Shown: piece after piece, positions 5 through 63,084 of the stretch
How the letters are laid out: each line of letters starts with the position of its first letter
How positions within the stretch are numbered: position 1 is the first letter of the stretch
Assembly (NCBI GenBank): GCA_963744715.1
Contig: CAVUUR010000006.1
Span: 160,001 to 224,000, forward strand
Length of the DNA stretch: 64,000 nucleotides
Direction: 5' to 3'
Origin: an uncultured bacterium
Lineage (GTDB): Bacteria; Babelota; Babeliae; Babelales; JACPOV01
The notes under the pieces: generated by a model
Told to the model about the DNA's origin: nothing
The model's input: the letters and a program-made list of their open reading frames with translations, nothing else
Databases searched by the model: none
Position numbers and translations under genes: made by a program

Positions 5-1009
5 TTAAAAAAGCTTAAATGTAATAAGATCAGTAGGCTGAGCTTTTAAATCTTGTATTTTATTTTTTTCTTCTTTTGGAAGAGTTGAATCTAAGTAGTC
101 CAGTAATGAACCCACTTGATTAGTCTGCTCTGTTAAAAACTGGTGAAGATTATTGCGTCCTTTGCTAGATTCGGTTTTTTATTTTATCAACGTTGTTAAA
201 TGCAATAAGTTCATTTATGGTTAGTACGGTTAGCGTTAATATCTCTTTGACGTAATGTCATCCACATATTCAGGATCAAAGCTTATAAACATTCCGCGCA
301 ATGCTAAATATTTTCTTTGCAAATACTTCATAACCTTGATAGTTGCAATCTAACAATACTTTGTCAAAAATTGGTTCCTGCACTTCCCTTAGCTGATAAG
401 AAGTTTGCTTGGCTAAATCGGAAGCCATTGCTTCATCTTGCTTTCCTGCTATAGCTTTCCACATACTGTATACCGGCACAGACGAATCAACTTTAGGTTT
501 TTTTTGATTTTTTAATATCACTCCCAAAGATTTTTGGACATCCTCACCGATTATTCTTCTTTCAATAAGAGTTTTTCGGCTAATGATTGGCTCGCGTTAG
601 ATGTTTCATTATCGCTACCTAGTATCATTGATACTGCTTTGCAAACATTCTGATTAGAAAATGCAAGCTTAAGCCTTGATTGGATTTCTGATTGTTCATT
701 AACTTTCGCCCATTGTAACAATAATTCAAAATTTTCAGGATTTAAGCCTGCATACTCAAAAATTTTTTCTTTGTTATAATCAAAAATATTACCAAAATTA
801 GGTATTCCAGTATTAGTTAATTCGACTGCACCAATATTCAAACCAACAACTTTACAACATAAATCTTGTAATGAATCCGGGTTTGCCACTGCCCCTTCAA
901 TCATACGCTCTTCTTTGATTCTTTTAGAAGAACTATCTATCTCCATCATTTCCATGGCCGCTACCGGCAAACTGCATAATAATACAGATAATAATAAATA
1001 TTGTTTCAT
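5..1009 (-). CDS. Signal-peptide orphan protein with BC-box-like motif, broken by about 3 indels (ORF pieces 551-1009, 276-527 and an open frame to about 5)
   Basis: Start MKQYLLLSVLLCSLPVAA-ME at 1009. Reading continues in another frame after LLLK (RIIGEDVQKSLGVILKNQ...). Contains PDSLQDLCCKVV. Confidence 0.55.
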
Positions 1010-5592: not shown

Positions 5593-5629
5593 AAATAAAT
5601 GCTCACATGTATGCATGCGAGCATTTATT
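5593..5629 (-). terminator. Intrinsic terminator-like hairpin
   Basis: aataaatgctc...gagcatttatt stem downstream of the 5677-6165 gene. Confidence 0.6.
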
Positions 5630-5676
5630 ACATTACATAAGAAAATATCGTAATTATTTTTTTGCAGTTTTTTTCT

Positions 5677-6165
5677 TTAGTTCTTTGCTGTATAAATTGT
5701 TAATTGTGATTGAAATTCTTCATCAGTCGAAATATCAATATTTGTTCTACTGGTTAATGCATCTACAATGCTTGACACCACTTGAATTTTTGAACCATTA
5801 TTCAACGCTTCATTGCACAGTATTATTGAATAAATTGATAACTCTTTAAAAATTGGTACTAGCTTCACGCCTTTAGACTGGCTATACCGACCATATGCAC
5901 TAGCTGCACAATCGTTAAAAAAATCTGCTCTCCCTAAATAGGTAATATAATTTTTGCCATCTTCATTCACAAGCACCGCTTCCTGCATATTGCGCACAGC
6001 AAGAGTGCCGCAAAATTCAATAAATTTAGCATTATCCAAAGCATTAATTTTTGATTGTTGCCCTGATGTCAAGGCGATAGCATCAAATATTGACGTATTA
6101 TCTTGCATAGCTAAACAAGCATTAAGCACAGTGATAAAAAACAATAACATTAATTTTTGACTCAT
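5677..6165 (-). CDS. Signal-peptide hypothetical protein
   Basis: MSQKLMLLFFITVLNACLA-MQ, 162 aa, co-oriented in a cluster of four. Confidence 0.7.
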   Translation of the reverse strand: MSQKLMLLFFITVLNACLAMQDNTSIFDAIALTSGQQSKINALDNAKFIEFCGTLAVRNMQEAVLVNEDGKNYITYLGRADFFNDCAASAYGRYSQSKGVKLVPIFKELSIYSIILCNEALNNGSKIQVVSSIVDALTSRTNIDISTDEEFQSQLTIYTAKN

Positions 6166-6192
6166 ATTATACCTTTAGCGAACCTCAATTAC

Positions 6193-6657
6193 TTAACTAA
6201 AAAAAACACCATATTCTTCTGGTTCTAAATTTATACCGTCAAGATTAGCAATAATCAAGCTTTTCAAATCTACGGCTTGATCAATTACGCCAGCATCATA
6301 CAATATTTCATCACGCTGCACAACGTTTCTTAATATAGCAATTGCATGTTTTATTGCTTCAAATTTATTTTTATGTAAATTTTTCGCATCCTTAATAGCT
6401 GAGCTAGAGTAAAGAATTGATTTATGTGAAAAGTCTAATGCAATTTTCTTATAATTTTCGCTTGCAGCCAAATCGTTCTCAATGTACCGATTGTAAGCAT
6501 CATCAGCTAACTGATTGAATAATAAAGATTTTTCATACAAATTACCATAGCTAATTATATTGTAACCTTTATCGTTAATCACGTTAATTTCTAAATCTTG
6601 TTCCATAGCACAACAACTATGAACAAAAATGGATACTAAAAAAACTATTATATACAT
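6193..6657 (-). CDS. Signal-peptide hypothetical protein
   Basis: MYIIVFLVSIFVHSCCA-ME, 154 aa. Confidence 0.7.
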   Translation of the reverse strand: MYIIVFLVSIFVHSCCAMEQDLEINVINDKGYNIISYGNLYEKSLLFNQLADDAYNRYIENDLAASENYKKIALDFSHKSILYSSSAIKDAKNLHKNKFEAIKHAIAILRNVVQRDEILYDAGVIDQAVDLKSLIIANLDGINLEPEEYGVFFS

Positions 6658-6666
6658 ATGCTTTTC

Positions 6667-7671
6667 TTATCGTTGTAATTTTTGCTGTTGTAACTCTCTT
6701 GACGCATCAATATTTATAAAATCTTTGCAGAATTTTTCCAATCGTTCTTCAGGTATATTTTTTTCCAATGTATTTTCTACTATCCAATCACTCAATAATA
6801 TGCCCTCATTTAATAAATCCTTATTACGAGATGCGCTAATTTCCGATACACTGTCAAGTACTGAATTAAGATGTTTATCAATATCATCTTGATGATCTTG
6901 TTTCTTCAACGTTCTTATATACTTACTAAAACCGATATATGCCTGTTCTTGGACAGTCAAAAGCATCATAAATTTTCTTTCATCGTCAGGGGTCATTTTA
7001 CGTGAAAAACTATTTTTTCTTCCTCTCGTTCGTACCGCCGACTTATTCACAGATTTTACGTATTCTTTGAATTGCCCATCGCAAAATTGCGCAAGACTAT
7101 AAGGATTTAAGTCTTTGTCCTCCAACTTAATTGCTCGAGCAGCCTTTTTTGCAAATACCTTAAATTCATCATTATACTTTCTCACAAAATTAATAACTTC
7201 TTGATGGCAACTCGCATTCATTACCTTCTCTATACGAGTTTTAGTTTGAAGAAATTGTTCCCTATCTGACTTACATTTTTCAGAACTATTCAAAGCAACT
7301 GAATGGCGTATAAACCCCGATAAATTACCATTATTGTCCGCTATACCCTTTTCTTTAATTGCGGATAGCCTTAGCATAACTTCTAACAAACCTACCTTCT
7401 CATCATTATTTTCCATGGGTAGCGTTGGTGCTTCAGCAATATCCCCAGGATATTCAACCGCAGGCGACCTTAAGAAAACGTCCATACGTGCTTTCTGATC
7501 ATCATTATTACTTTTTATTGGTAATATCTCATTCTTTCTAATTTCATCCATTATTCGCGCAAGCACTACCTCGCCATCAGGATCTATTTGCTCAAGCTTA
7601 TCATTCTCCATGCCGAAACACTGCCCTACAAAAACAGCTGAAAACATTACAAATATAAATTTATTATTCAT
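6667..7671 (-). CDS. Signal-peptide hypothetical helical protein
   Basis: Likely start MNNKFIFVMFSAVFVGQCFG-ME at 7671, with AAGG upstream. Confidence 0.7.
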   Translation of the reverse strand: MNNKFIFVMFSAVFVGQCFGMENDKLEQIDPDGEVVLARIMDEIRKNEILPIKSNNDDQKARMDVFLRSPAVEYPGDIAEAPTLPMENNDEKVGLLEVMLRLSAIKEKGIADNNGNLSGFIRHSVALNSSEKCKSDREQFLQTKTRIEKVMNASCHQEVINFVRKYNDEFKVFAKKAARAIKLEDKDLNPYSLAQFCDGQFKEYVKSVNKSAVRTRGRKNSFSRKMTPDDERKFMMLLTVQEQAYIGFSKYIRTLKKQDHQDDIDKHLNSVLDSVSEISASRNKDLLNEGILLSDWIVENTLEKNIPEERLEKFCKDFINIDASRELQQQKLQR

Positions 7672-7824
7672 AAATACCTTTATTAAAAACATATTATATA
7701 CTACAAAACAATTCATAGCATAACTGAAAATGAAATAAAGTAAATATAATAAAAAAACCTTTACTGGCAAATTTATTGTATATTTTTGCACAAGAGAAAA
7801 TATTTTGAAGGATAAAAATATTCG

Positions 7825-9243
7825 TTATTTTATTATACCTTGAGCATGCAAAAATGTATTGAGATCCCCATACTCTACAGATTCCGTCATATCTTCTATT
7901 CTTAGGCGATATTCAATATCAGTAAGGATTGCGCCAATTTCAGGCGATTTCGTTGCCGAATATGCTTTTTGATACTCTTGCGCCGATTGAGCAAACATTA
8001 GCATATAATATTCACGAACCTTGGCTCGTTTAGTTTCCTCAGTTCGTTCAGCTTTCTCATCAACTTCTTTTTCACCGATAATTTTTTCATATTGCTTGCT
8101 TACTTGCTCATCGATAGTTTTTTCATACTTTTCTTTTAATTGCTCAGCGATAATATATTGCGTATATGCCCTTTGTTTACAATCATACCCAGATACAAGA
8201 TTATTATCCTTAATGTATACATAGGCCTGCGCAATCTTGCTCAGCAATGTTGTATCAACATGAGTATCTTGCCAAAAAAAAGCTGGAGGGGTCATTTCTA
8301 GTTCGAAAATTTTTTGAAGCAACCGTTGACCATCCTTGGATTCAGCCCCCATAAGATTTTCGACGGCATTCAGAACTGAACAATAGGTATGCTGCTTACC
8401 TAGGGGTGTAGCAAAAAAATCTTTAGCCCTTTGAATAGTGCCACTAAGCTCAACAGAAAAAAGATTGCCCGTTAAAAATTGTTTATATTCTTCCTGGCTG
8501 AGCAACGTTACTTTTTTTTGTAATGTTTCAAAATTTTTTTGATCTTTTTCTTTAATCGCCAACAATGTCTTAATAGATTTTAAGGCAGCAAGACTGGTGT
8601 AGTATCTGGCCTCCAAAGGCAATTCAACCTCAGAACAGGCAGTACTTAATGCATCGATAAGCCCTGAAGAAAATTTATTATCTTCTAAAAGAGCTGTATA
8701 TTCATCCCTACTTAATAACGTTGCTTCTTCTTTTAATAATTCAAACGTTGTTTGATCTTTTTCTTTAATTTCTAATAATGTCTTAATAGATTTCAATGAA
8801 GCGAGACAAGTATAAATTTTGGCACTTTCTTGATTCCCAAGTTTCTCATAGGCCTTACTTAATGAAGTAATAAGTTCTGGTGTAATAAAATCATCATCCT
8901 TATACACGATATTAGGATATTTTTTATTAAGCTCCTCAAACGCTTCTACTGCGCGCTCTACAGAGTCATTATTTTTAAGATTAACCAACGTTTCAACTTC
9001 CATTAATGCCCTTTTAAGAGCATCTTTATCCGTTTTATACGTATCATTGCTCAAACTTCCACGGTTAACTTCTGGACTTTTAATTTCCTTTTTCCGAGAA
9101 AATAATTTGAACCCACTTTTAGTTTTGGTTGGATTAGCCTCAAAAATTTTTTTGTTATCTTTTGTTACAGAAGTAATTTCCATTGCACTGCAACGGCAAT
9201 CAAGAAAAAATAATGGAAGCAGTAGTAATATTTTGTAATTCAT
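7825..9243 (-). CDS. Signal-peptide protein with about 71-aa internal helical repeats
   Basis: MNYKILLLLPLFFLDCRCSA-ME. LKSIKTLLxIKEKDQ occurs twice, 213 nt apart. Confidence 0.75.
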   Translation of the reverse strand: MNYKILLLLPLFFLDCRCSAMEITSVTKDNKKIFEANPTKTKSGFKLFSRKKEIKSPEVNRGSLSNDTYKTDKDALKRALMEVETLVNLKNNDSVERAVEAFEELNKKYPNIVYKDDDFITPELITSLSKAYEKLGNQESAKIYTCLASLKSIKTLLEIKEKDQTTFELLKEEATLLSRDEYTALLEDNKFSSGLIDALSTACSEVELPLEARYYTSLAALKSIKTLLAIKEKDQKNFETLQKKVTLLSQEEYKQFLTGNLFSVELSGTIQRAKDFFATPLGKQHTYCSVLNAVENLMGAESKDGQRLLQKIFELEMTPPAFFWQDTHVDTTLLSKIAQAYVYIKDNNLVSGYDCKQRAYTQYIIAEQLKEKYEKTIDEQVSKQYEKIIGEKEVDEKAERTEETKRAKVREYYMLMFAQSAQEYQKAYSATKSPEIGAILTDIEYRLRIEDMTESVEYGDLNTFLHAQGIIK

Positions 9244-9351
9244 AGCAATCCTTTTGATGTAATAAAAAAACAAAAAATGGTTCCTTAATCTCTATTATGT
9301 ATAAAAATTAGTCTGTAGCGGTAGTGTACCAAGAATTGCTATAAAGTACAT

Positions 9352-9391
9352 AAAAAAGAGCGCAAACTACTTATTAGTTATGCGCTCTTTT
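9352..9391 (-). terminator. Intrinsic terminator after nrdB
   Basis: aaagagcgca...tgcgctcttt stem with a T-tract on the minus strand. Confidence 0.75.
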
Positions 9392-9420
9392 AATTAACAT
9401 CACGATAAAATATTTTCTAT

Positions 9421-21356: not shown

Positions 21357-22133
21357 TTATAATAATGATCGCAATAATACCGCAGCACATACTGCTGCTT
21401 GCTGTGCACGTAAAACAGTGGGCGTTAATGTTAGAAATTCTATGTGATACTGACGCAAGATTGTTTTTTCTTGAAACGTTAAATCACCCTCTGGGCCAAT
21501 GATGAAAACAAGATCAGTCGGTTTATTCATTCTTGCTTGTTGTACAAAAGAAAAACAATCAGTTCCTTGAGGATCAAAAAAAATATTTATTTTTTTTTCT
21601 TTTTTTTGTGCACTATGCATTTCAATAAGTTCTTGTAATGATACAGGATTGCGAATAGATGGAAATGAAAAATTTTTAGATTGTTCTGCCGCAGCAATAG
21701 TTACATTGTGCAATCTCATCAATTCCTTATCGCCACCCCACGAGCGTTGTTGTTTTTCCGTATGCAACAATTGTATTTCAGAAACTCCTGCTTCCACTAA
21801 TCCATATACTGCCTCAGTTAACCCTTCCCGTTTCAACATCGGCAATACGCAGGTAATATGCGGTTTATGTACAACATTGTTATGCTGTTCTAAAAGAATT
21901 ACATGGCAAGATTTTTTTTCAGAAGTTTTAACTAATTGCAAAACTCCATATGATTGTTGATCAAAAAGAATAATATGCTCGCCTGCGCTTAAGCGGAGAA
22001 CACGAGTTATACGATGACACAATAATTGATCATCAATAATTATTTCTTGATTAATCATTACTGATGCAACGTACGAAGAAAACTGCGGCCAATATAATGA
22101 AAATTGATGTTTATTATTTGCTAAATCGTTCAT
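21357..22133 (-). CDS. rsmE: 16S rRNA m3U1498 methyltransferase RsmE
   Basis: HRITRVLRL, AAAEQS, IIGPEGDL, VLRAQQA. Confidence 0.9.
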   Translation of the reverse strand: MNDLANNKHQFSLYWPQFSSYVASVMINQEIIIDDQLLCHRITRVLRLSAGEHIILFDQQSYGVLQLVKTSEKKSCHVILLEQHNNVVHKPHITCVLPMLKREGLTEAVYGLVEAGVSEIQLLHTEKQQRSWGGDKELMRLHNVTIAAAEQSKNFSFPSIRNPVSLQELIEMHSAQKKEKKINIFFDPQGTDCFSFVQQARMNKPTDLVFIIGPEGDLTFQEKTILRQYHIEFLTLTPTVLRAQQAAVCAAVLLRSLL

Positions 22134-22818
22134 AGATTCTTGAATATAATACATGTTTTAATTGTTTATATGACTCAGCACAATATTCTCTTAGATCAAT
22201 GTAACGCATTAATAATGCAATACCAACCTGACGAATCATTATTTCTAATCTAGAAAGTTCTTCTGGTTGATAATCTAAATCGGGCAACTCATTAAATAAT
22301 TCTTGATCAAAATTTACTTGAGGATGAGCTTCTTTTTCTGGCATCATAGCAACCAGATTAAACTCCATCAAAAGATCCTGCGGAATAAGAATCCCATGAG
22401 CGTACGTAAGATTTTTTTCAAAGATAACAGTACCAAGTGTTGTTTTCGTTTTTTGTAATTGTATAAAAGGAACATCAACCTCGAGCATTATTTTTTGTTG
22501 ATTTTGTCTATCCACCAATGCTTTAACGAAGTAACAACCGATATCATGAGCGTTAAGACCATCATGCCATAATGATGAAATACTATCCCAAACAACGCGT
22601 CGATACACACATTTAGTTTTCTTAATATACAATACATCTCCATGCAGTAGATGTTTAGCAGAAACTACGCCGATATATTCGTTATGTTCTTGGTCGGATA
22701 AAATCATCAATAGTGAATAATGTTTTTCAAGTATATCAAAAGAAAGTGGCATTGAAATAATAGTGTTCGATGCAATGAACATAGTAATAATGACACACCA
22801 TATTTTCTTTATATCCAT
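22114..22818 (-). CDS. Signal-peptide hypothetical protein
   Basis: MDIKKIWCVIITMFIASNTIIS-MP, with AAGGA upstream. Confidence 0.65.
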   Translation of the reverse strand: MDIKKIWCVIITMFIASNTIISMPLSFDILEKHYSLLMILSDQEHNEYIGVVSAKHLLHGDVLYIKKTKCVYRRVVWDSISSLWHDGLNAHDIGCYFVKALVDRQNQQKIMLEVDVPFIQLQKTKTTLGTVIFEKNLTYAHGILIPQDLLMEFNLVAMMPEKEAHPQVNFDQELFNELPDLDYQPEELSRLEIMIRQVGIALLMRYIDLREYCAESYKQLKHVLYSRIYERFSK

Positions 22819-24485: not shown

Positions 24486-25772
24486 ATGAAAAAAATATTT
24501 TACATATTATATGTAATCGGTAATTATTCTTTATGTATGGATTATAATGATCAAACTATTCCTTCTTTGCGCACACTAGCAGCACAGATGTATACCACGC
24601 ATAATAATAACCCCTATGAATTTAGCAAAAAAAAGATACCTGACGATTGTCAAAATCTGCTAGCTCAAGCATGGTGTAATAATAATCCGGAAAAAGTTCC
24701 TCACTACGTATATCAATGCAATACCTTATCTGAGCAGGCATCTAAACAAACTATACTATGGGGGGATTGTGATACTCTTTTGATGGCTGATAACAATAAT
24801 TTTACTATTTTTGATATTTGCTCCGACACGGTAATTAAAAAAATTCCTCTTGATCAAGGATTTCACAATAACTACGCACAACTATCAACCACTATGATTG
24901 CCACTGCTCACAAAGACAATAAAATAATAAAACTCTATGATATAAAACATGATACCGAATCTCTCAATGCATATAACCATAGTTTTTCTCTTGTTCCGTT
25001 ATTTCTTGATGAAAAAAACATCATGTTAACTGAATATAACTTTCCCAATATTGCATATTTTTGCTATCAACTTGAACCATGGCAAGAAAAATATGTTATT
25101 GATACGCAAACTTTCGTAAAAAATACTTGTTGCGCCGTAGGGATAGCGAATAATACCTTTATTGTTAATAATCCCCCTCTTGGCATTCATATATTTGATC
25201 TGAACGACGGGCGACTACAAGAAATATTGCCAGAAAGCAGCCGAATAAAATCGGCACTACTTTCAGGAGATAAAACAATAGTTGGTGGCTACCAAACACA
25301 AGAAGGTTCATTAGATGCTCTTACGTTATGGAACCTCGTAACTAAAAAAAAATCCGTGGCTCATTATCTGCAATCGCCATTTTTTCTTACCGATAATAAA
25401 GTTTTTTATTACACCAATAATGAGGTATTAGATTTGCAGAAAAATGTGTTCTATAAACCTTATTACATCGCATCAAAAAAGATCAAAGACAAACTTTTTA
25501 TTCCTCAAAAAGTTTGTAATGCTCATAATATTATGCTTCTTACTACCAATAATGTATCACCAGAATTTTTTGTAACTAACAACAACGAACCATCAACGTT
25601 ACATGAACTGCTTGGCGCATTAGATGTTGCATCATTACTGGAACAAACAACTACCCTAACGACTGCGCAACAACGAATTAATGAACTAGAGGAACAACTA
25701 CAAAATTTGCCTCATGATAGTGATAAAAAATCTATCGCACAAATATTGCATTCATTAACAGATAATTATTAA
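24486..25772 (+). CDS. Secreted beta-propeller-like protein with N-terminal BC-box/SOCS-box-like segment
   Basis: Signal peptide then MD, IPSLRTLAAQ...IPDDCQNLL, degenerate WD-like repeat ends (IKLYDI, IHIFDL, LTLWNL). Confidence 0.65.
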   Translation: MKKIFYILYVIGNYSLCMDYNDQTIPSLRTLAAQMYTTHNNNPYEFSKKKIPDDCQNLLAQAWCNNNPEKVPHYVYQCNTLSEQASKQTILWGDCDTLLMADNNNFTIFDICSDTVIKKIPLDQGFHNNYAQLSTTMIATAHKDNKIIKLYDIKHDTESLNAYNHSFSLVPLFLDEKNIMLTEYNFPNIAYFCYQLEPWQEKYVIDTQTFVKNTCCAVGIANNTFIVNNPPLGIHIFDLNDGRLQEILPESSRIKSALLSGDKTIVGGYQTQEGSLDALTLWNLVTKKKSVAHYLQSPFFLTDNKVFYYTNNEVLDLQKNVFYKPYYIASKKIKDKLFIPQKVCNAHNIMLLTTNNVSPEFFVTNNNEPSTLHELLGALDVASLLEQTTTLTTAQQRINELEEQLQNLPHDSDKKSIAQILHSLTDNY

Positions 25773-27429
25773 TTAAGATACACTATTATAATCCTCAATA
25801 GATAGTTCATTATCCCTTTTAGGGTTATATTCACCATTCGATACTTCTTTGAATGTACTATCAATAGAAACAATTGCTTCAAGCATTTCTATTATTTTGG
25901 GTAAATCATACTTTGCTTGGGATAAACCATAATACGTTGCTATGGATAACGCATCCCTTCCTTGATTATCCGTCAAAGCTGTTTTAATACTAGAGCCATA
26001 TAAAAACAAGACTCTGAACATTGTAAGCGCATTGGCAATTCTCTTCTCTCTGTCTTTCTTCTTACCCATATACTCGATTAGCGTAATTAATGGCGTAGCA
26101 TTATCAATAGCTCTTTGCACATTACGATCCGCGCCACGATTAAGTGCTTTTTTAAACTCACTAACGTTATTATTTTGTATCGCGTCAAAAAGGTTTCCAT
26201 TTAGTATTTTTTGTTCAATACCAGCTCTTGTTTTCAAATCATCTAAAAATTGCTGACTATCTTCTGATGAATCGGGTGATGTTGCATGATTACGACATAA
26301 AAATTCTATTTGCTTTTGCAGCGTAACTGGTTGAGAAATAATTTTTTTTCCTTCCTCCCGCTCCTCTAGCGATGCCAGAAGAGTTGCCATCCCATTATCC
26401 GATATTTTATTCTCACTTTGATACATCTTTTCCATCTCCAGCAGCAACGAATCGGGTCTCGGGAAACTTTCTAATAGCATTACTAGTCGGATTCATTTCC
26501 CCTCCAATCTTTGCTATCATATCTTCTTCTATTTTTGATAAATTATAATACTGAGCTATAGATAACGCATTCTTACCCTGATTATCCGTCAAATGTATGT
26601 CAATATTGGATCCGGGTGCGAGCAAGGCATTAAACATTTCAACCGCCTTGTTAATTTTTGTCTCACTTCCTTGATGAGTACTCATATACTCGATCAGTTC
26701 AATTAATGGCGTTTTTCCATCTTTATCTCTTTGTACATTACGATCTGCGCCACCATTAAGTGCCTTTTGAAAATCATCAATATTATTATTTTCTATTGCT
26801 TTAAAAAGATTTTTATTCACTGCTATTTGCTCAACAAGGATTTTACCTTTCAAAGCATCAAAAAATCCCTGCTCACATTTTTTGGGCATATCATTTGTTG
26901 GTTTTTCATATTGCTCGCGTAAGCGGTCTATTTGTTCCACGAGGGTAACTGGTTGAGAAATAGTTTTTTTTCTTTTTTCCCGTTCTCGGAGTAATAACAC
27001 AAGAACTTTTAAACCATCATCTGATATTTTACTTTTTTCTCTATACAATTTATCAAGATTTTCCATTGCTAACATCAGCGGATTAGTATTAGTAGGAAGA
27101 ATATCGCAAGACTTACTCATGCCACCACTTTTTAATACTTTTTTTATCTTACTCGGATTCTTATTGCCTTTAATCGCATCATTAAGAGCATCTAGTCTTT
27201 CTTGAGCATTATCGCCAATTGGATTTTTATAATTCGGTGTCGACGCGCTTCTTCCATATGCTTTGGGATTAGTATCTTCAATATTTTCTTGCCTCGTTTT
27301 TCTTCCAAAAAGACTACTTCTAGATTTAGCTCTTGCTATTTTTTCCTTCGACGAATTTTTGTAATCCATGCATAAACTGAACTGAAAAAGAAATAGCAAA
27401 CACCCTAACGTTTTTACGCTACCAATCAT
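25773..27429 (-). CDS. Secreted ankyrin-repeat protein with a duplicated unit of about 205 aa, one frameshift near 26450-26480
   Basis: Both ORFs share ISQPVTL, NLFxAIxNNN, GADRNVQR, TPLIxLIEYM and LTDNQG. The DNA repeat offset is 616 nt, not a multiple of 3. Confidence 0.8.
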
Positions 27430-27530: not shown

Positions 27531-28109
27531 TTATTTAATTTGATATTCAAAATCAACGAAGCCATCGTCTCGTTTTATTTCTTTAAAGCCTGCCCGTGTA
27601 TACACTTTCATAGCCGGATAATTAGTGGTTCGTGTAACTAAGGTAATTTTTGTGCATCCTTGTGCAATTAAATCATTCATAGCATATTTAAACAATTGAT
27701 ATCCGTAACCTTTTGATCTGTATTGATCAAGGACTCCCAAAAACAAAATGCGTCCTTCATAAAATTTCTTTTTATAATAGCTAACAAATCCAGCAGGAGA
27801 TCTACCTTGATATAAAACTTTAATGGTCATAGCTCCTTTTTGCTGAAAATCTCTTGAAGTTCTATTATGCAACATGTGCGTAACATAATCTGGTGCAAAG
27901 GTAGGTGAAACGCCGGCAATTAACCACTCCCAATTGTGTTTAAAAATATCAAGAACAAAAGGAGTATCTCTACGATCATTAAAATCATAAATCCCTACTT
28001 TTTGATACAGGTTATAATAAACACCAAAGCCAGCTGCGATGCATACGCTTGAAAAAATAAGCGCTAAACTTAATTTTTTAGTTAAAAAATTTATTCTTTT
28101 TTTTATCAT
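27531..28109 (-). CDS. GNAT-family acetyltransferase with N-terminal membrane anchor
   Basis: LGVLDQYRSKGYG acetyl-CoA motif and NYPAMKVYTRAGF. Confidence 0.88.
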   Translation of the reverse strand: MIKKRINFLTKKLSLALIFSSVCIAAGFGVYYNLYQKVGIYDFNDRRDTPFVLDIFKHNWEWLIAGVSPTFAPDYVTHMLHNRTSRDFQQKGAMTIKVLYQGRSPAGFVSYYKKKFYEGRILFLGVLDQYRSKGYGYQLFKYAMNDLIAQGCTKITLVTRTTNYPAMKVYTRAGFKEIKRDDGFVDFEYQIK

Positions 28110-34867: not shown

Positions 34868-35380
34868 GTGAATAATTATGTAGTACTATGCAGTGCCTTA
34901 TTTACAATCTTTTCGACACTTGCAGCAATGGAATTAACAGAAGATAACCCTGTTGCATTATTTATAACCAAGATTGTTCAAGCCCATCCTAATAATAATT
35001 CCTATGTATGGCATAATACTATTGACCATACCAGAAAAGGTTCTGGCACGTTATACGATTATTTTGAGCTAGGCAGTTCTGTTAACGTAATTTCCAGCAT
35101 AAGGCTACCAGAAGAAAAACAGCATGATTACGTTGATCAAATGCTCAAAGGAATATCGACTTTCGATTACAACGATAACACTATACTCATATTAACTGGC
35201 GCAGAAGAAACCATTAAAGAGGTCGTCCAACAAAAAGAACGTAAAAAAGCTACACGGTTAGCAAATACCAACAAATCCTCATTACTGTTATTTGGAAGTT
35301 TTGTTGCTGCCTGTACTATTATGGCAACCTTAACTACGCAACGTTTAATGCGCACCTATATACCTAAACTATACCAATAA
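34868..35380 (+). CDS. Signal-peptide hypothetical protein with C-terminal TM helix
   Basis: ...FSTLAA-ME; hydrophobic C-terminal segment; AAGGA RBS. Confidence 0.7.
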   Translation: MNNYVVLCSALFTIFSTLAAMELTEDNPVALFITKIVQAHPNNNSYVWHNTIDHTRKGSGTLYDYFELGSSVNVISSIRLPEEKQHDYVDQMLKGISTFDYNDNTILILTGAEETIKEVVQQKERKKATRLANTNKSSLLLFGSFVAACTIMATLTTQRLMRTYIPKLYQ

Positions 35381-42505: not shown

Positions 42506-44443
42506 TTACAGCGCTCTATGCAAATTGCGCAACGTCATATTTAACGTTTGCAGCTGTTGGTATACTACGCCAAGATCTACCCGCGTTGGTTGTTGTTTTC
42601 TCTGCGCTTCTTGAAGTAATGCTTTTGCTTGTTCGTTACCAGATAAATCTAAAGCGGTTTGCCCTACTGCATTTTTTAATGTAATATTTGCTCCCTCATT
42701 AAGCAAGGCTGGTATGAGCTCATATCTAGTACCCTCCGCTGCCATCATTAATGCACTAAAGCCTTCTCGATTTTGTAAATTAACGTTGATATTTTTAATT
42801 CTTAAAAGCAATGTTATTATCGGTTCCTCATCATCAGAAATCGCTGCCATAAGCGCAGTATCTCCATTGTCATTCTGTCCATTAATATCCGCACCCGCAT
42901 CAATCAGCGCTTGAACGATACCGGGATTACGATGTTCTACTGCTTCTATGAGAAGTGTTGTTGCATGACCAGCTGCGTCTTTTATCACGTCATTAATATG
43001 ATCTTTAATTTCTTGATCACCCAGGAAATCTTTTATTTGGGTTACCTGAACCTTTTTAATCATTTCTTGTAACTTTTTCAATTTTTGCTCAGTAGTTAGT
43101 GCTGGTTTTTTAATCAACTTTTCAAGATAAGTTACAATGTTATTGTTATGCGCGCCTTTAGCAACGTCAAGAGCTGTCTGAGGCTTCTTTTCATTTATTC
43201 CAAATATTACAGCTTTGTTAAGATCTGCGCCCTTATCAACGAGTAATTGTATTATCTGATTTGCCATATCTTCTGCGTCATTCATAACTACATGAAAAAT
43301 AGGTGTTAATCCATTCTCATCTTCCAAATTTGAATTTGCACCTTTATTTAAAAGAGAACTAACTACCTTACGCGCATCGTCAGTAAAAGCAAGATCTCGT
43401 TGCGTTGCATAAAAAAGAGCGCTTTCTCCTTTACTGTCTCGTGCATTAACATTAGCCCCTTTATCAAGCAAAAATGCAACGATGCCTGGTTGCCAATTAG
43501 ATGCTGCCTCCATTAAAGCAGTTCTACCATTATTATCCGCTTTATTAACTAACTCATGATTCTTGGTATATAGACTCAATACTTTAGAATAATCTTTACC
43601 CGCGGCATCAATAAATTCCTTGATTTCTTGTTGTTCTTTAGTCGGCTGTTCTCTTGCAGCGCCACGTATTAATGATCTAATAAAGTCATTCTTGGCATAG
43701 TTCACGGCCGTGTCCCCTTTGGAATCCTTTGCCGAAACATCTGCTCCTGCCCGAAGCAATGCCCCTACTATTTCCCTATTTCCTTTCTTAGCTGCAAACA
43801 TAAGTGGTGTTTTACCTGCATTTGTTTTCACATTTACATCGGCATCGTTCTCTATCAGAAATTTAATAGCAGGTAACTGTGACCCTTCTATAGATGCAAT
43901 CAATGGATTCATTTCTTCACCCCGATATTGCATCATCGCATCAATATTGGGTAGCATATTTGGCAAAATTGTTTTTAAAGTTCCAACTAATCCTTTATAA
44001 GCAGTATCAACAAAATTTTTTAATTGTTCTTCTTTTTTCTTAGGTAATGCTGGCGGATTTTTTAATAATTTAACAATTGCTTCAAATTCTGGTTTGCTCT
44101 CTGCTAAAGACAATGGCGTTTTTTTATCTGAAGTGTGCGGATACTTAGGATTTGCACCTTTGTTCAAAAGCTCCCTTATAAGCGAGAAATACCTTGCTCG
44201 ATCTAATGTATCTTGTGGTATTTCTGTCACATCAATTGCAAGCCACAGGGGAGTTTCTCCAGTCTTATAAGGATCTGCATTTGGCGCAAGTATATTCATA
44301 GTTATCATGTTTGCTGCAAGGCCATAAGTTTTATCGGTAATATATGATTTAAATTCACCGTAATTAAGCTTTTCTTGCTCCATAGCAAAAGCAGTATGCA
44401 TTCCTATCATAGTAAAAGTTAATAATAACATCTTTTTGTTCAT
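42506..44443 (-). CDS. Secreted multi-module ankyrin-repeat protein
   Basis: Signal peptide then ME; many GxTPL/TAL..A...LL..GAD.N repeats. Confidence 0.93.
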   Translation of the reverse strand: MNKKMLLLTFTMIGMHTAFAMEQEKLNYGEFKSYITDKTYGLAANMITMNILAPNADPYKTGETPLWLAIDVTEIPQDTLDRARYFSLIRELLNKGANPKYPHTSDKKTPLSLAESKPEFEAIVKLLKNPPALPKKKEEQLKNFVDTAYKGLVGTLKTILPNMLPNIDAMMQYRGEEMNPLIASIEGSQLPAIKFLIENDADVNVKTNAGKTPLMFAAKKGNREIVGALLRAGADVSAKDSKGDTAVNYAKNDFIRSLIRGAAREQPTKEQQEIKEFIDAAGKDYSKVLSLYTKNHELVNKADNNGRTALMEAASNWQPGIVAFLLDKGANVNARDSKGESALFYATQRDLAFTDDARKVVSSLLNKGANSNLEDENGLTPIFHVVMNDAEDMANQIIQLLVDKGADLNKAVIFGINEKKPQTALDVAKGAHNNNIVTYLEKLIKKPALTTEQKLKKLQEMIKKVQVTQIKDFLGDQEIKDHINDVIKDAAGHATTLLIEAVEHRNPGIVQALIDAGADINGQNDNGDTALMAAISDDEEPIITLLLRIKNINVNLQNREGFSALMMAAEGTRYELIPALLNEGANITLKNAVGQTALDLSGNEQAKALLQEAQRKQQPTRVDLGVVYQQLQTLNMTLRNLHRAL

Positions 44444-45654: not shown

Positions 45655-45670
45655 ACCTATCTCCTTATTA

Positions 45671-45725
45671 ATAGTATTTTTACCTAACCTTACTGCGCGT
45701 GGCATTGATAATGCAATAGTTTTTT
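45671..45725 (-). promoter_or_regulatory. Repeated promoter block, copy 2 (TTGCAT-N18-TAAGGT)
   Basis: atagtatttttacctaac.ttactgc.cgtggcat..ataatgcaatagttttt shared with copy 1. Confidence 0.65.
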
Positions 45726-55194: not shown

Positions 55195-56966
55195 TTATTC
55201 TTTACTAAAGCCCTCAAGAGGTGGAAATTCAACATCAAAATATCCTTTGGCCATATAATTTTCAACCAATTCTTTTCCCGATCTTGCAACAAACCCTCGA
55301 TGATACCATTGTCCGTTAGTAGAATCTATGATATAAGTAAAAAGACCGGTATCAAATGAATTATCTTGATAAATAATCGCACCAGGAAGGGTAATAAGAT
55401 GATCCTTTTTCCCCCCATTTGCCTACTTGGTGTTGTTGCTTGCTTACCCCATTGCTGTACATAGGTATCAACATCTGGCGAAAATCCATGAACGAGAATA
55501 GTTTTTGTGCGTTCACTATCAATGGTATATTTTTTATTTTCTGGGTCAGTATAACCTTGCTTTTGCAATGCTGATAGTGGATCGGTTAACCACCGAGTAA
55601 CCCATGGAGTATAGGAAGGTTTGCCGGAAATAGTTAGTTGATTTTCCGTATCGGTCTTAAAAAGTTTGATAACAACGTTATTCTTAACGTCATTAATAGT
55701 TATATAATCTTCAGTTTCTTTATTACTTTCATCGACAAACTCTTGTTCCTCTTCCTCGCAAACATTATCAATCAAATCTTCTTTCTGATGAAATTTTTCC
55801 TTACTCTCTTGTAATGGCAAGAATTGTTTTTTATTTTTTTTCTTTTGCTTTGCGCTGCTAGTTTTTTGTTTTAATAAATCGGGAAGCCATTCTTGATTTT
55901 CACCCCTTGCAAGCGCATTAGATTCGTCCCGCAATAATGATTCTGGTAAGACTGCTGTGTCAGGAGAACCAGTTTCAACGTTAAATTTTTTTAAATAAGC
56001 GAGAACCTTAACATTTTTGTTATCTGCTTTACGTTCAATATCTATGGTACTCTTAATTTCTTTATAGAGCTCTCCATAATATTTATTAAATTTATCTTTA
56101 TTTTCCTGATATTTTTGTACTAAAACTTTGAGATTTCTAATGTACGTATGAAGATTTTCATCGTCTGCAACATTAAAGCCTTCACGTGATGACTCCTCTA
56201 ATAGATTAGCAGTATACTGATTTATGCATTCTACGCCACACTTGAGACCTATCAAAAATTCATTTAATTTTGTATTCTGTTTTGAAAAAATACTATTATA
56301 CGATTTACCAATTTCACGCATAGAATTGAATAAATTTGATACGTTCGTTTCATTAATTTTAGTAGCTTGCTTCATATTCATATTGTACTGAAAAGTTTGT
56401 GCCATTCTTTTGATTTCTTTGTTTGCACTGTACTTATACTGCTCAATAAATCTCTGTGTATGTTCATTATTTTGCGCCGTCAAATTGCTATGTGCAAGTT
56501 CATAAACACTCTCATTTTCAGGTTGTGAAGGGGGTTTTACATTTGAAAACACTGACATAAAAAGAGAAGAATTTCTTATGACAGCCGCAACAGCCTCTGG
56601 CGTTTTCATAGATAAATAGCAAAAATCTAAAGGTTCTTTAAACCCACTTACTACAGTCTCTCCTTTCAAAATAAAAGATGATTTACTTATTTTTTGACAA
56701 TGTTCTTCGCTTTGAACATATCCTTGTATCTGATTAATAAATGTATCTTGTATCAAAAAACCATTAGCAGCTTTTTGTAAGGTTTTTAAATATTCTTCAG
56801 ATTTCATTGATGGAGAATATCCACATAATGTTTTAATATCAACCGGAACACTTTTCTTCTTTTTATTTTTCGCTTGCACGGTTTTTGGTGTAATTTCTGA
56901 AAGTTCCATCGAAAATAATAAAGGTTGCAATAAAAAAGTACTCAGTAATAATAATGATAATTTCAT
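55195..56966 (-). CDS. Signal-peptide hypothetical protein, one frameshift at a G6/A5 homopolymer near 55410
   Basis: Start MKLSLLLLSTFLLQPLLFS-ME. After the shift it continues KDHLITLPGAIIYQDNSFDTGLFTYIIDSTNGQWYHRGF...FPPLEGFSKE to a stop at 55195. Confidence 0.7.
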
Positions 56967-60001: not shown

Positions 60002-62173
60002 ATGAATAAAAAAATAGTTGTATGCATCAGCATATTATCACTTTATAGCACAGCCACATTTGGCATGAGCGATCAAGCAAAACTACAAGACATATTAACA
60101 AAGTTTAAGAGCCCAGGCATCGCCGGTACTAAATATACAAATTTATTGACAGCAATAAATGCATTCACGGGTGATGTAAATACCAAATTTACTAATGGTT
60201 CAAGGCTGCTTATAGAACTTGCAAAAGATTCCAGCCCATCAATAATAGAACCTATAAAGGCACTGCTAGGTAAAGGGGCCGATCCTGCATTAAAAGATGG
60301 TAACGACTGGAAGGCTATTGATTATGCATCCAATGCCAATAAGGATGTATTTAATTTATTGCTAGAAACACAGAACAACTTACAAGATTTTGTGGAGGCT
60401 GCAAAAAAAGGTGATATGAAAATTGTACGCGATTTCCTTGCAAAATCACCTGAAAAAATTAATAATTTTGCACCGACAAGAATCGGCGGCCAGCAATTAA
60501 ATGCTCTCATGGCAGCAGCCGCTAATAGTAGACTTCCTATGATCAACGAATTGTTATCAAACCAATACAAAGCGGATGTAAATATACAAAATGAAAATGG
60601 CTATACGGCACTCATTCTTGCTTGCATTACTCCTGATAATAGACAAGTAATAGAGGCGCTTCTTAAGGCTGGCGCCGATGCCACAATAGCTGATAAAAAT
60701 GGGCAAACCGCATTAATGCATGCAATTTTAAGTAAAAATATCAGCGTTGTAGATGGCTTAGTCAAAAAATCAGATATTAATGCTCTCGATAAAAACGATA
60801 AAACAGTATTGGATTTAGCCAATGATGCAAACATGTCTAAGATAGCTGCGAGCTTAAAAAAATTGTACGGTGCAAAAACGTATACAGAACTTCAGGCACA
60901 ACCACCGGCTCCCGCCCAAATAACAGTTAAAGAATTTGTGCAAGCTGCTCACGATGGCGATCTTGCAAAAGTACAACAATTTCTCGCAAATCCGGAGAGC
61001 GTTAAAAAAATTAATGAGTTTGCAGACATACGAGAAGAGGGCATACAACCAATTACATCTAATGCTTTATTTGCAGCCGTAAAAGAATCAAAAGAAGCTA
61101 TTATAAATGAACTAGTTAAACATAGAGAGCTTGCTATAAACACGCAAGATCAAAATAAAAATACTGCGCTCCACGTTGCAGTTTTCAAGGAAAACCAGAA
61201 TATTATTACAACATTATTAAATAACGGTGCAAATCCAAATATTCGAGACTCCTTCGGCATGACTCCCCTAATGCGTGCCGTTCAGATGAACAATACCGAT
61301 AGCGTAAATGCATTATTAAATAACCAAAAAACCGATGCTAACCTGAAATCGAACAAGGATTTCCCACAAACTTGGGAAACTGCTTTATGGATTGCTCTTA
61401 ATAAGGGAAACCCGAATAAGGATATTATTAAAGCATTAGTAGATAAAGGTGCAGATATTACTATTAAAAATCGTCAAGGCAAACTGCCCCTGCAATTTGC
61501 TCGAGATAACAACCTCACGGAAATTGAGACAATTTTAGAACAAAAATCACCCTCTATTGAAACAAAGCTCAAGGCTCTTGAACAAGCAATTGAAAAAAAT
61601 TTGCCTGCTGAAGTAAAGGATCTTTTACGAGATGCAGATATCAAGAATCATATTAATGATTTGACAACAATAAATAACGAGAAGAGAACATTTCTTACCT
61701 ATGCTGCAGGTCAAAGAAATATAGATCATACTATTATTCAAGCATTACTTGGTGCCGGGGCAAATATTAATGGAACGGATCATATGGGCGATACAGCTCT
61801 TATGCAAGCAGTCTTAGCGAATAATCAAAGCTTGGTAACGCTATTATTAGATAATAATGCTAACGTTAATGCGCAATCTGAGGCTGGAGATAAAGCTACA
61901 GCATTAATGTTAGCCGCAGAATGGGCGCCGCACCTAATATCATTGTTACTTGCGCGTGGAGCAAGGATTGATTTGAAAAACAAATATGAGGAGACTGCTT
62001 TGGATATAGCCAAACGGAATAATAATGGGGATTCTATAAAATTTCTTGAAGAAGCAGCGAAAAAACAACAACCTTCACAACAAGTGGATCTTGGCACGGT
62101 ATATCAAAATCTAATGCAACTTAATACTGCATTGCGAACATTACAACAAACATTGCGACCCAGCTTTCGCTAA
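60002..62173 (+). CDS. Secreted multi-module ankyrin-repeat protein
   Basis: Signal peptide then MS; many ankyrin repeats; AAGGAG RBS. Confidence 0.93.
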   Translation: MNKKIVVCISILSLYSTATFGMSDQAKLQDILTKFKSPGIAGTKYTNLLTAINAFTGDVNTKFTNGSRLLIELAKDSSPSIIEPIKALLGKGADPALKDGNDWKAIDYASNANKDVFNLLLETQNNLQDFVEAAKKGDMKIVRDFLAKSPEKINNFAPTRIGGQQLNALMAAAANSRLPMINELLSNQYKADVNIQNENGYTALILACITPDNRQVIEALLKAGADATIADKNGQTALMHAILSKNISVVDGLVKKSDINALDKNDKTVLDLANDANMSKIAASLKKLYGAKTYTELQAQPPAPAQITVKEFVQAAHDGDLAKVQQFLANPESVKKINEFADIREEGIQPITSNALFAAVKESKEAIINELVKHRELAINTQDQNKNTALHVAVFKENQNIITTLLNNGANPNIRDSFGMTPLMRAVQMNNTDSVNALLNNQKTDANLKSNKDFPQTWETALWIALNKGNPNKDIIKALVDKGADITIKNRQGKLPLQFARDNNLTEIETILEQKSPSIETKLKALEQAIEKNLPAEVKDLLRDADIKNHINDLTTINNEKRTFLTYAAGQRNIDHTIIQALLGAGANINGTDHMGDTALMQAVLANNQSLVTLLLDNNANVNAQSEAGDKATALMLAAEWAPHLISLLLARGARIDLKNKYEETALDIAKRNNNGDSIKFLEEAAKKQQPSQQVDLGTVYQNLMQLNTALRTLQQTLRPSFR

Positions 62174-62367: not shown

Positions 62368-63084
62368 ATGAATAAGAAAATATTCTCATGTATAAGCATA
62401 TTATTTTTTTATAGCAGTATAGCACTTGGGGGTGAAATACAAGAATTTGTACAAGCTGCTTACGACGGCAATCTTGCAAAAGTACAAGAATTTCTTAAAA
62501 AATCCCCCAATAAAATCAATGATTTTACAATACAAAATGAATCATGGGGTTGGGTGGTGGAGAATCAGAAGGGAGAGAAAGATAAAGTAAATGCTTTACT
62601 AGTAGCCGCTCAAAATAATCAGGAAGCTATTGTAAATGAATTACTTAAATATAAAAATCTTAACCTCAATGCTAAAACATCAATATCAGGAAAAACTGCC
62701 CTTCATTATACAGGTAATCAAAATGTGATTAATGCATTAATAAATAAAGGCGCAGATCCAAATATACAAGATGATCTTGGAACGACCCCGCTTATGAAAG
62801 CTGTTGAAAGTGGTGATACGAATGCTGTAAAAAGTTTATTAAAATCTCCAAAGATAAACGTTAATACAGCCATGCCCAATACTCATGAAACTGCTTTGTC
62901 GATTGCTATTGAGTCCGTGAGCCCGGATATGGACATCGTTAAAGCATTGGTAGCTAAAGGTGCAAATATTAATGCTCCTACTGAAAAAGGTAAAACAGCC
63001 CTCGAGTATGCCAAAGAGCACAAATTAACCGAAATCGTAAAACTGTTTGAACAGCAAAAATCAACCCAATCAACCAAACATTAA
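62368..63084 (+). CDS. Secreted single-module ankyrin-repeat protein, paralog of 60002-62173
   Basis: Homologous signal peptide, EFVQAAYDGNLAKVQEFL module, GAGGAG RBS. Confidence 0.92.
   Translation: MNKKIFSCISILFFYSSIALGGEIQEFVQAAYDGNLAKVQEFLKKSPNKINDFTIQNESWGWVVENQKGEKDKVNALLVAAQNNQEAIVNELLKYKNLNLNAKTSISGKTALHYTGNQNVINALINKGADPNIQDDLGTTPLMKAVESGDTNAVKSLLKSPKINVNTAMPNTHETALSIAIESVSPDMDIVKALVAKGANINAPTEKGKTALEYAKEHKLTEIVKLFEQQKSTQSTKH

Follow-up and report, generated by a model that had tools for sequence, protein, structure and literature searches.

Methionine directly after the predicted signal peptide in eukaryote-like repeat proteins and orphans of an uncultured bacterium

Methionine-first junctions at the locus

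The window, that is, the whole stretch of 64,000 nucleotides analysed here (G000:C6:160001-224000), belongs to the small, parasite-like genome G000, which comprises 1.26 Mb in 12 contigs at about 35% GC and carries one bacterial 16S gene. It is rich in open reading frames (ORFs) with a signal-peptide-like leader followed by ankyrin or WD40 repeats or by no recognisable domain, and in size, GC and signal-peptide ankyrin/WD40 content the genome agrees with the descriptions of Dependentiae in the available passages of two papers (PMC4378268, PMC6561590), which suggests a Dependentiae-like bacterium. The subject of this work is the residue that such leaders would leave exposed: in many of these proteins the first residue after the predicted cleavage site (+1) is methionine (Met), and it is usually followed at +2 by Asp or Glu. 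Cleavage sites throughout are predictions by our own heuristics, and the ORF set consists of 1427 non-overlapping ORFs of at least 60 aa obtained by greedy longest-ORF calling.

Four genes of this kind lie in tandem on the minus strand between 5677 and 9243, as the first-pass annotation had described. The gene at 5677..6165 encodes a putatively exported orphan protein of 162 aa, with the predicted signal peptide at 6109-6165 (MSQKLMLLFFITVLNACLA, ending NACLA), the Met codon at 6106-6108 and then CAA (Gln), which gives the junction CLA-MQ; no Pfam family was matched at E<=0.01. Next to it, the gene at 6193..6657 encodes an orphan of 154 aa, with the predicted signal peptide at 6607-6657 (MYIIVFLVSIFVHSCCA, ending HSCCA), the Met codon at 6604-6606 and then GAA (Glu), the junction being CCA-ME; its Pfam match lies below threshold only, and the two proteins are faintly alike (E 0.001). 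The third gene, 6667..7671, encodes an orphan of 334 aa counted from the ATG at 7671, upstream of which stands aaagg, while the longest ORF extends to 7791; the predicted signal peptide occupies 7612-7671 (MNNKFIFVMFSAVFVGQCFG, ending GQCFG), the Met codon is 7609-7611, followed by GAG (Glu), and the junction is CFG-ME. No Pfam family was found for this protein when it was scanned from the longer start, and by BLASTP it is unrelated to the product of the fourth gene, 7825..9243. The latter is an orphan of 472 aa with a predicted signal peptide at 9184-9243 (MNYKILLLLPLFFLDCRCSA, ending CRCSA), a Met codon at 9181-9183, then GAA (Glu), and the junction CSA-ME. It contains a duplicated, helical-looking segment and matched only itself in a search of 5.8 billion proteins; it stands outside the 94 ORFs scanned against Pfam below, since the Asp and Arg in its leader fail the filter.

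All twelve junctions that the first-pass annotation had listed in the window begin at the positions it gave and have the residues it described, each leader opening with a polar or basic n-region, continuing in a hydrophobic core free of charge and ending in a small residue at -1. Its figure of about a dozen is right for the window; the genome as a whole holds at least 94 such ORFs in 66 BLASTP families. Beside the tandem four, the gene at 551..1009 (minus strand) encodes a predicted exported protein of 152 aa (signal peptide 956-1009, Met codon 953-955, VAA-ME), which carries an S-L-x-x-L-C motif 28 residues past the junction Met and belongs to a three-gene BLASTP family with C6:157854-158879 and C6:159627-159938. 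On the plus strand, 24486..25772 encodes a protein of 428 aa without a Pfam family (signal peptide 24486-24536, Met codon 24537-24539, SLC-MD). The same junction residues, SLC-MD, are found in the 338-aa protein of 26413..27429 (minus strand; signal peptide 27370-27429, Met codon 27367-27369), whose ankyrin similarity is weak (Ank_2 E 9e-6, 26.6 bits, below the Pfam cut-off of 27.3). Adjoining this gene is a leaderless ORF of 235 aa, 25773-26480 (minus strand), which is 46% identical to the C-terminal part of the 26413-27429 protein and looks like a tandem partial duplicate or a gene remnant of it.

Farther along the window, a GTG-started gene at 34868..35380 (plus strand) encodes a predicted exported orphan of 170 aa with a hydrophobic C-terminal segment and no Pfam family (signal peptide 34868-34927, Met codon 34928-34930, LAA-ME). 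The 645-aa ankyrin-repeat protein of 42506..44443 (minus strand; Ank_2 E 5.7e-53) has its signal peptide at 44384-44443 and its Met codon at 44381-44383 (AFA-ME); its neighbour and paralogue, 44629-45705, has Ala where the Met stands. A further orphan of 546 aa without a Pfam family is encoded at 55326..56966 (minus strand; signal peptide 56910-56966, Met codon 56907-56909, LFS-ME), and the 723-aa ankyrin-repeat protein of 60002..62173 (plus strand; signal peptide 60002-60064, Met codon 60065-60067) shows the weaker form of the rule, with Ser after the Met (TFG-MS). The 234-aa protein of 22114..22818 (minus strand), with a leader at 22753-22818 and Met-Pro at 22750-22752 (IIS-MP), is a weak and doubtful member. 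The ankyrin proteins 42506-44443 (minus strand, ME), 44629-45705 (minus strand, Ala) and 60002-62173 (plus strand, MS) also have a common C-terminal tail, ...DLG-V/T-VYQQL..L...LR.L..., which may be a shared C-terminal helix.

Enrichment and conservation of the methionine across the genome

By a loose rule, which takes the residue before the first charged residue past the hydrophobic core, Met was found in 85 of 598 cases, and ME (42) and MD (31) were the two commonest dipeptides. By a scoring of the -3 and -1 positions that is blind to +1, Met was the commonest +1 residue, at 74 of 422 signal-peptide-like ORFs without further membrane segments, against a background of 1.7% (binomial p 3e-50); after these 74 Mets, +2 was E in 23, D in 18, Q in 7 and N in 3. 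When Met was counted by offset from -8 to +13, the 74 at +1 stood against at most 23 at any other offset. Predicted cleavage falls directly before the Met, in agreement with the first-pass annotation. With the same criteria applied to every residue and +2 limited to D/E/Q/N, Met accounted for 96 of 343 sites (in 94 ORFs), and the next residues were N with 26, L with 25 and S with 25. On both counts (74/422 and 96/343) the conserved N-terminus that had been claimed from the window is enriched genome-wide and is not limited to the window. The 94 ORFs amount to about 7% of the 1427 called, are mostly orphans, and fall into 66 BLASTP families (sizes 7, 6, 4, 4, 4, 3, 3, 2, 2, 2 and 2, with 55 singletons). 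They are also clustered on the chromosome, 33 of the 94 having a neighbour from the same set, whereas 1000 random draws gave 11.9 on average and never more than 29. The Met-first pattern is beyond chance and genome-wide.

These 94 ORFs (96 sites), defined by a signal-peptide-like leader, a junction Met and D/E/Q/N at +2, are called the Met set below. The filter also misses members, as one charged residue in the leader excludes several proteins that follow the rule, and a small number of the 94, such as one on contig C8 with its odd GC content, are probably false. Two contigs, C1 (3.3 kb, GC 0.61) and C8 (5.4 kb, GC 0.46), deviate from the genome GC of 0.35-0.37 and are probably foreign to the assembly bin, and the single Met-set match on C8 is likely false.

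Conservation was taken from paralogues, because homologue searches outside G000 gave too few orthologues: the 94 ORFs compared by BLAST with the ORFs from 1.59 Mb of six relatives gave one junction-spanning match, a database search with the N-terminal module of a WD40 protein of the set found nothing but paralogues from G000, and a contig scan of genomes with the J-domain/ankyrin member returned one unrelated ankyrin match. The paralogue profile covers columns -12 to +16 of 64 pairs with alignments across the junction, at a mean identity of 37% over the high-scoring segment pairs. In these pairs, which are not independent and in each of which one member was chosen for having Met, 58 of 64 (91%) agree in the Met, more than in any other column (22 to 62%); the +2 column stands at 62%.

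The composition of +2 is as distinctive as the position of the Met. After the junction Met, small residues make up 7% there and Asp or Glu 55%, the latter against 13% at non-Met sites and 5% at position 2 of 231 leaderless ORFs that begin with a Shine-Dalgarno (SD) word and ATG, where K (52), N (27) and I (22) lead. If +2 is left unrestricted (n=144), E (42), D (31), Q (12) and N (8) follow the Met, and hydrophobic and small residues are depleted. In a strict non-Met set of 84 ORFs, D/E make up only 14% at +1 and 18% at +2, and therefore the acidic residue is tied to the Met and is no general feature of the cut site. The Met looks selected.

Since the sequence offers two in-frame ATGs at each of these genes, it has to be asked whether the second is, or once was, a start. 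An SD-like word stands 3-18 bases upstream of the leader start in 61 of the 94 ORFs, with a G peak at -10 to -7, and upstream of the junction Met in 0 of 94, compared with 279 of 3586 random internal Mets. The junction DNA has no nucleotide conservation past codon constraints and no -10-like signal in the 24 bases upstream. Among the 64 paralogue pairs the leader columns are 33-62% identical and the early mature columns 22-41%, which means that the leader is conserved as protein. In keeping with the first-pass annotation, the junction Met is not the true start. That the leader could nevertheless be an untranslated open stretch and the Met the only start is most improbable: gene finders may choose either ATG, and AT-rich sequence translates to hydrophobic residues, but the leaders are built of n-, h- and c-regions, have small residues at -1 and -3, are preceded by SD in the proportion just given and are conserved as protein, the Met count falls from 74 at +1 to at most 23 at neighbouring offsets, and in stop-rich, AT-rich DNA chance would hardly keep some 20 codons open ahead of about 100 genes. 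It is also very improbable that the internal ATG serves as a second start, SD-independent or on a leaderless transcript, and so yields an isoform that stays in the cytoplasm in addition to the exported one. The pattern by definition admits no codon but ATG, the one that leaderless initiation requires; yet the SD-like motif is missing before all 94 Mets, the junction DNA lacks the nucleotide conservation and -10-like signal just mentioned, the acidic +2 is unlike genuine starts, and it is hard to see what use the cell would have for about 100 ankyrin, WD40 and orphan proteins in its cytoplasm. A look-up of sequencing runs for window 5600-9400 listed none, and no RNA source. Two ATGs in the same frame, some 20 codons apart, also make it easy for annotation to choose the wrong start and so to miss the signal peptide. 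A third possibility is that the Met is a relic without present function, the former start of ORFs, captured or newly arisen, to which a leader was added by 5' extension or by fusion behind a promoter-plus-signal cassette. The eukaryote-like or orphan cargo, the clustering of the genes (33 of 94 with a Met-set neighbour) and the ease with which AT-rich upstream DNA encodes hydrophobic peptides would suit such an origin. On the other side, the +2 spectrum (D/E 55%, small residues 7%) is unlike the starts of the genome, an unconstrained residue with a single codon would decay, yet the Met is 91% identical where the columns just downstream are 22-41%, and the junction is exact; TTG encodes 7 of the 25 Leu at +1 and GTG 3 of the 16 Val, no enrichment over the genome-wide shares of 18% and 15% in a comparison of low power, and no homologue without a leader that starts at the Met was found. 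The relic is unlikely. The same evidence disfavours the proposal of the first-pass annotation that a signal cassette was repeatedly fused in front of intact ORFs, as D/E follow ordinary starts in only 5% of the 231 ORFs, no column of the diverged paralogues is better conserved than the Met, the search for leaderless homologues with their start at the Met found none, and the leaders of different families are not alike.

Cargo, relatives and export machinery

Pfam matches at E<=0.01 in the 94 Met-set ORFs comprise ankyrin in 13 (one together with a J-domain), WD40 or other propellers in 11, LRR in 4, TPR/Sel1 in 2 and a C2H2 zinc finger in 1; of the remainder, 54 match nothing and 9 have a weak single match below the cut-off. 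No hydrolase or envelope family is above the cut-off in any of the 94. The families of the genome, defined by BLAST, give a similar picture. There are 15 WD40 ORFs, of which 11 pass the filter, three more have ME by eye (two scored as leader without Met, one as without leader) and the fifteenth is a fragment of 97 aa, so that signal-peptide WD40 proteins follow the rule in 11 of 13 by filter and in 13 of 13 by eye. The rule is followed by 4 of 4 LRR and 2 of 2 TPR ORFs. The 35 ankyrin ORFs are divided into 13 with Met-D/E/Q/N, 3 with Met and another residue, 7 scored as non-Met and 12 scored as leaderless, which makes 16 of 23 signal-peptide ones by filter; by eye, one of the seven non-Met ORFs (ILS-MD) and at least three of the twelve 'leaderless' ones do follow the rule.

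For comparison, the control consisted of the 84 ORFs with a strong leader and SD and no Met near the site; 69 were sampled, 4 known window ankyrin/WD40 ORFs were excluded and 65 were scanned at E<=1e-5, of which 26 gave families and 39 none. The families found include envelope proteins and secreted hydrolases (thioredoxin, OmpH/Skp, OMP barrel, Amidase_3, peptidases M16, C11 and, three times, M48, an S9/S33 hydrolase, GH1, GH18 twice, PLD and a PAF-AH-type lipase) and others (lactonase/NHL propellers twice, DUF5122, pentapeptide, TPR, HD and ankyrin twice). Three more, a UDP-glucose dehydrogenase and two methyltransferases, are probably proteins of the cytoplasm and false positives. Comparison of the two Pfam scans indicates that the Met marks interaction-domain and orphan proteins, while envelope and degradative proteins are without it. 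That is, the rule marks one class of proteins, the eukaryote-like repeat proteins and orphans. By the usual classification of the classical eukaryotic N-end rule, 57 of the 84 ORFs in the strict non-Met set have a destabilising residue at +1.

Two features of this cargo deserve separate mention. A fusion of J-domain and ankyrin repeats of 780 aa (L019:4215-6554, minus strand, which is G000:C9:16381-18723) follows the Met rule, with DnaJ (E 3e-16) beginning 13 residues past the Met, and could be a secreted co-chaperone-like effector. In addition, the motif S/T/P-L-x-x-L-C-x-x-x-V/I/A occurs 10-32 residues past the Met in 9 of the 94 Met-set ORFs (four of them WD40), against 7 of 1333 other ORFs, and is often trailed by I-P about 35-45 residues later. 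Its sites are window 686-895 (minus strand), L008:2059-2268, L015:9776-9985, L029:18216-18425, L030:126-335, L026:9772-9981, L026:10412-10621, L028:5285-5494 and L013:6176-6376. The best PDB match of the motif profile, a weak one, is the same motif in yeast Rad7 (5zb2_A, E 0.031). We take the motif to resemble the Elongin-C-binding BC box; if it is one, it would place these proteins in the host cytosol as SOCS-box-like ubiquitin-ligase adaptors with an N-terminal box.

The distribution of the rule was followed in relatives taken from 60 genomes sampled from the phylum, each labelled as of the same family or the same order as G000. The same pipeline, blind to +1, was run on sampled DNA, and the counts are to be read as those of small samples, with clustered Met-set genes and kin that are not independent. 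In the same family (f1), G001 has Met at +1 in 21 of 96 cases (400 kb). Within f2, the figure is 24 of 107 in G005 (400 kb), 8 of 43 in G049, 3 of 22 in G018, 1 of 10 in G020 and 0 of 34 in G027 (100 kb each). For f8 it is 5 of 31 in G048 (188 kb) and 0 of 18 in G059 (100 kb), for f5 7 of 71 in G040 (200 kb), and for f10 2 of 45 in G041 (200 kb) and 4 of 16 in G039 (100 kb); f4 gives 2 of 37 in G047 (200 kb) and 0 of 22 in G057 (100 kb), and f6 gives 0 of 5 in G010 (100 kb). The relatives with little Met serve as negative controls of the pipeline. At +2 after the Met, E exceeds D in G000 and G001, and D prevails in G005. From these counts it follows that the rule is real outside G000 but patchy.

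As to the signal itself, the leader has a length of 20.1 +/- 2.8 residues and predicted n-, h- and c-regions of Sec type with small residues at -1 and -3, which is partly so by construction. The genome has one Peptidase_S26 gene (G000:C11:21214-21924, E 1.1e-36), and with this single gene a second signal peptidase was rejected as an explanation. Other types of leader were rejected likewise. The lipoprotein pattern [LVI][ASTVI][GAS]C stands at the leader end in 0 of 94, the Cys residues noted in the first-pass junctions lying at -1, -3 and -4, and the RR of a Tat signal occurs in 0 of 94. For a prepilin leader, the hydrophobic segment is in the wrong place, since it precedes the Met and the segment +1 to +20 is polar (mean hydropathy -0.65; one of the 94 exceeds 1.0), and the Gly at -1 and the Glu at +5 of such leaders are found in 12 and 10 of the 94, respectively. 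In the Met set -3 is often Leu or Ile and -1 is Ala in only 47%, but the Met and non-Met sets were filtered differently and are not cleanly comparable; the same holds for Cys in the last eight leader residues, 41% in the Met set and 20% in the non-Met set. The net charge of the Met set over +1 to +10 has a mean of -0.98. No C-terminal signal is enriched in the set, CaaX-like ends occurring in 0 of 94, and the Cys content and parity of the mature parts are uninformative.

Among the genes for export beyond the inner membrane, the genome has two tandem secretins (G000:C3:2225-2692 and 7014-7484, about 5 kb apart, in ORFs of 817 and 881 aa) and two T2SSE-type ATPases. All five relatives tested have a similar pair, spaced by about 4-5 kb, and in G041 there is a third secretin elsewhere; the copy number is thus 2-3 in all five, with or without the rule, and does not track it. 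In the published genome of Babela, the type II system is the only secretion system that the available text reports as detected (PMC4378268). No modifier of an N-terminal Met was identified, and no search aimed at glutaminyl cyclase was made. A GNAT acetyltransferase of 192 aa in the window (27531-28109, minus strand; Acetyltransf_1, E 1.5e-14) may, to judge by its basic N-terminus and single hydrophobic segment, be membrane-anchored with the enzyme outside the cytoplasm. As an N-terminal modifier it was rejected, its homologues being found in G001, G005, G040 and G047 and none, with this query, in G041, a distribution that does not track the rule. Elsewhere in the window, the short ORFs 29502-29861 and 30321-30659 (both minus strand) look like pieces of one translational GTPase gene, the start of the G-domain and a later domain with unassigned sequence between, and may represent a broken gene or an assembly or frameshift problem.

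Possible roles of the Met-Asp/Glu end

The reading that we favour, tentatively, is that Met-Asp/Glu is a selected feature of Sec-exported, probably host-directed proteins, and that the predicted cut before the Met likely gives a protective N-terminus of eukaryotic type (Met-retaining, NatB-class) in the host cell. This takes up the proposal of a host-like N-terminus in the first-pass annotation, which is compatible with all the results. The single signal peptidase I (LepB) would cut A/S/G/C|Met, and the exported protein would begin with Met-Asp/Glu; the Met-set proteins would then leave the periplasm and reach the host cytosol. There, a free Met followed by Asp, Glu, Gln or Asn would escape the host N-degron pathways and methionine aminopeptidase, or would be acetylated like NatB substrates, and ordinary exported proteins, with +1 residues such as Q, L, D, Y and K, would not escape the N-degron pathways. 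Eukaryotic N-termini of the Met-retaining, NatB type have Met and then Asp, Glu, Asn or Gln, and a free Met before a non-hydrophobic residue is no Arg/N-degron. The proposal is favoured because the +2 spectrum after the junction Met (E, D, Q and N, with few small, basic or hydrophobic residues) matches the NatB class as generally given, because most +1 residues of the control (57 of 84) are destabilising, and because of the BC-box-like motif. A narrower form of it, which on present evidence is rather unlikely, is that Met-Asp/Glu constitutes a bacterial host-targeting address: a host factor, NatB-type or another reader of Met-acidic ends, would recognise the end and set the stability, location or uptake of about 100 effectors.

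Several observations weigh against the protective N-terminus. The rule is patchy even inside family f2 (24 of 107 in G005, 8 of 43 in G049, 0 of 34 in G027). Among the signal-peptide ankyrin ORFs of G040, 20 have a non-Met +1 and 8 more have Met only within ...S-M-Y-A|AQ, and 12 in G041 are non-Met; the +1 residues in these two genomes are mostly A, Q, E, N and S. Relatives without the rule thus put A, Q, E or N at +1 of the same kind of protein, from which it follows that the rule is no general necessity; within the window itself, the ankyrin proteins 44629-45705 and 62368-63084 are without the Met. NatB chiefly modifies chains that are still being synthesised, which makes it speculative that a delivered protein would be acetylated. 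Stability alone also leaves Met plus an acidic residue unexplained, since Ala, Ser, Thr, Gly and Val are stabilising too under the classical N-end rule.

The best rival, doubtful in our estimation yet the one to be taken most seriously, is that machinery of the bacterium itself (a secretin pathway of type II kind, a chaperone or pilotin, or the loading of vesicles) would recognise the free Met-Asp/Glu as a second-step sorting tag that takes cargo out of the periplasm, untagged proteins staying there or using another route. The first-pass annotation had likewise suggested a second-step export signal, but no single result speaks for it specifically. It would account for the division of cargo into eukaryote-like or orphan proteins and hydrolase or envelope proteins and for the selection on the Met and the acidic +2, and the two secretins and two T2SSE-type ATPases, like the type II system of Babela, could supply the route. 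A negatively charged export signal exposed after cleavage is known in the lipoprotein export signal of Bacteroidetes. Against it, the hydrolases that would be expected to be secreted (GH18 chitinase-like, GH1, C11 and PLD) are without the Met, which means that the Met is no general secretion signal; the number of secretins (2-3) is equal whether or not a genome shows the rule, relatives that do without it still export ankyrin proteins, no candidate reader gene was found, and type II substrates are generally recognised folded. We consider it improbable that the Met and the acidic residue merely form the best context for the Sec machinery or the single signal peptidase of this lineage, to which fast-evolving genes drift while old housekeeping genes keep the ancestral context. 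One LepB gene, an acidic early mature region (-0.98 over +1 to +10) of the kind that export favours, and the prevalence of the rule in young, lineage-specific genes would agree with such an optimum, the last being seen in the one junction-spanning homologue from 1.59 Mb of six relatives and in two database searches that returned only the genome's own proteins. However, 84 well-formed signal peptides work without the Met, and the +1 of housekeeping proteins is normally free to change and yet has no Met; the division follows protein class and not age alone, the control including many orphans without Met, and a preference general to the enzyme should show evenly in close relatives, whose LepB is similar.

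Compared with known systems, the Met-rule leader is, as far as its predicted features go, an ordinary Sec/signal peptidase I leader in every respect tested (n-, h- and c-regions, small -1 and -3, about 20 residues, one Peptidase_S26 gene) save the preference at +1 and +2: Met is the commonest +1 here and near background in several relatives (0/34, 0/22, 0/18, 2/37 and 2/45). By analogy, it is in kind a lineage-specific +1 rule like the Q-rule of Bacteroidetes, but confined to one class of cargo. According to the available passages of the Q-rule papers, Gln at +1 of signal peptidase I substrates is cyclised to pyroglutamate (PMC5837995; PMC10653852), and protection against aminopeptidases is discussed (PMC5837995). 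The likeness consists in a preferred residue right after the signal peptidase I cut, typical of a lineage, on many unrelated exported proteins, with a protective N-terminus discussed for the Q-rule. The differences are that here Met, usually with Asp/Glu, replaces Gln, that one cargo class and not envelope proteins is marked whereas the Q-rule covers most substrates including periplasmic ones, and that the pattern is patchy within one order whereas the Q-rule is phylum-wide. Nor are the proteins described here Q-rule members, as the marked class has Met at +1, and Gln is at +1 in 12 of the 84 strict non-Met ORFs.

The NatB or Met-retaining class resembles the Met set in its +2 residues, with the same depletion of hydrophobic and small ones, but the eukaryotic rules act on host proteins during translation, whereas here a bacterial peptidase would make the N-terminus and recognition by the host is hypothetical. 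In the Plasmodium PEXEL motif, RxLxE/Q/D is cut and acetylated, leaving xE/Q/D. In both PEXEL and the Met rule a signal peptide is followed by a short motif, and processing leaves, or here would leave, an acidic or amide N-terminus on proteins sent, or possibly sent, to the host; here, by contrast, a bacterium is concerned, the motif lies directly at the cut site of the signal peptide, and there is neither an RxL element nor a second protease. A literature search, with subscription journals and supplements outside its reach, found no description of a Met rule at +1; the word 'methionine' occurs 0 times in the available text of the Babela paper (PMC4378268), and the signal-peptide passages available for Chromulinavorax make no mention of Met at +1.

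The Met rule would be a second example, after the Q-rule, of a lineage that has rewritten the residue exposed by signal peptidase I, and it is precise enough to guide N-terminal proteomics and reporter work. It would offer a one-line sequence test for the candidate host-directed secretome of uncultured protist parasites. If the end proved to be a host-targeting address, it would be a prokaryotic counterpart of the PEXEL logic, and the effector repertoires of such parasites could be read from sequence. The restriction to one cargo class is relevant to the sorting, or the survival, of Sec-exported proteins once they are past the periplasm, in a group of bacteria for which the available text on a published relative gives type II as the only secretion system detected (PMC4378268).

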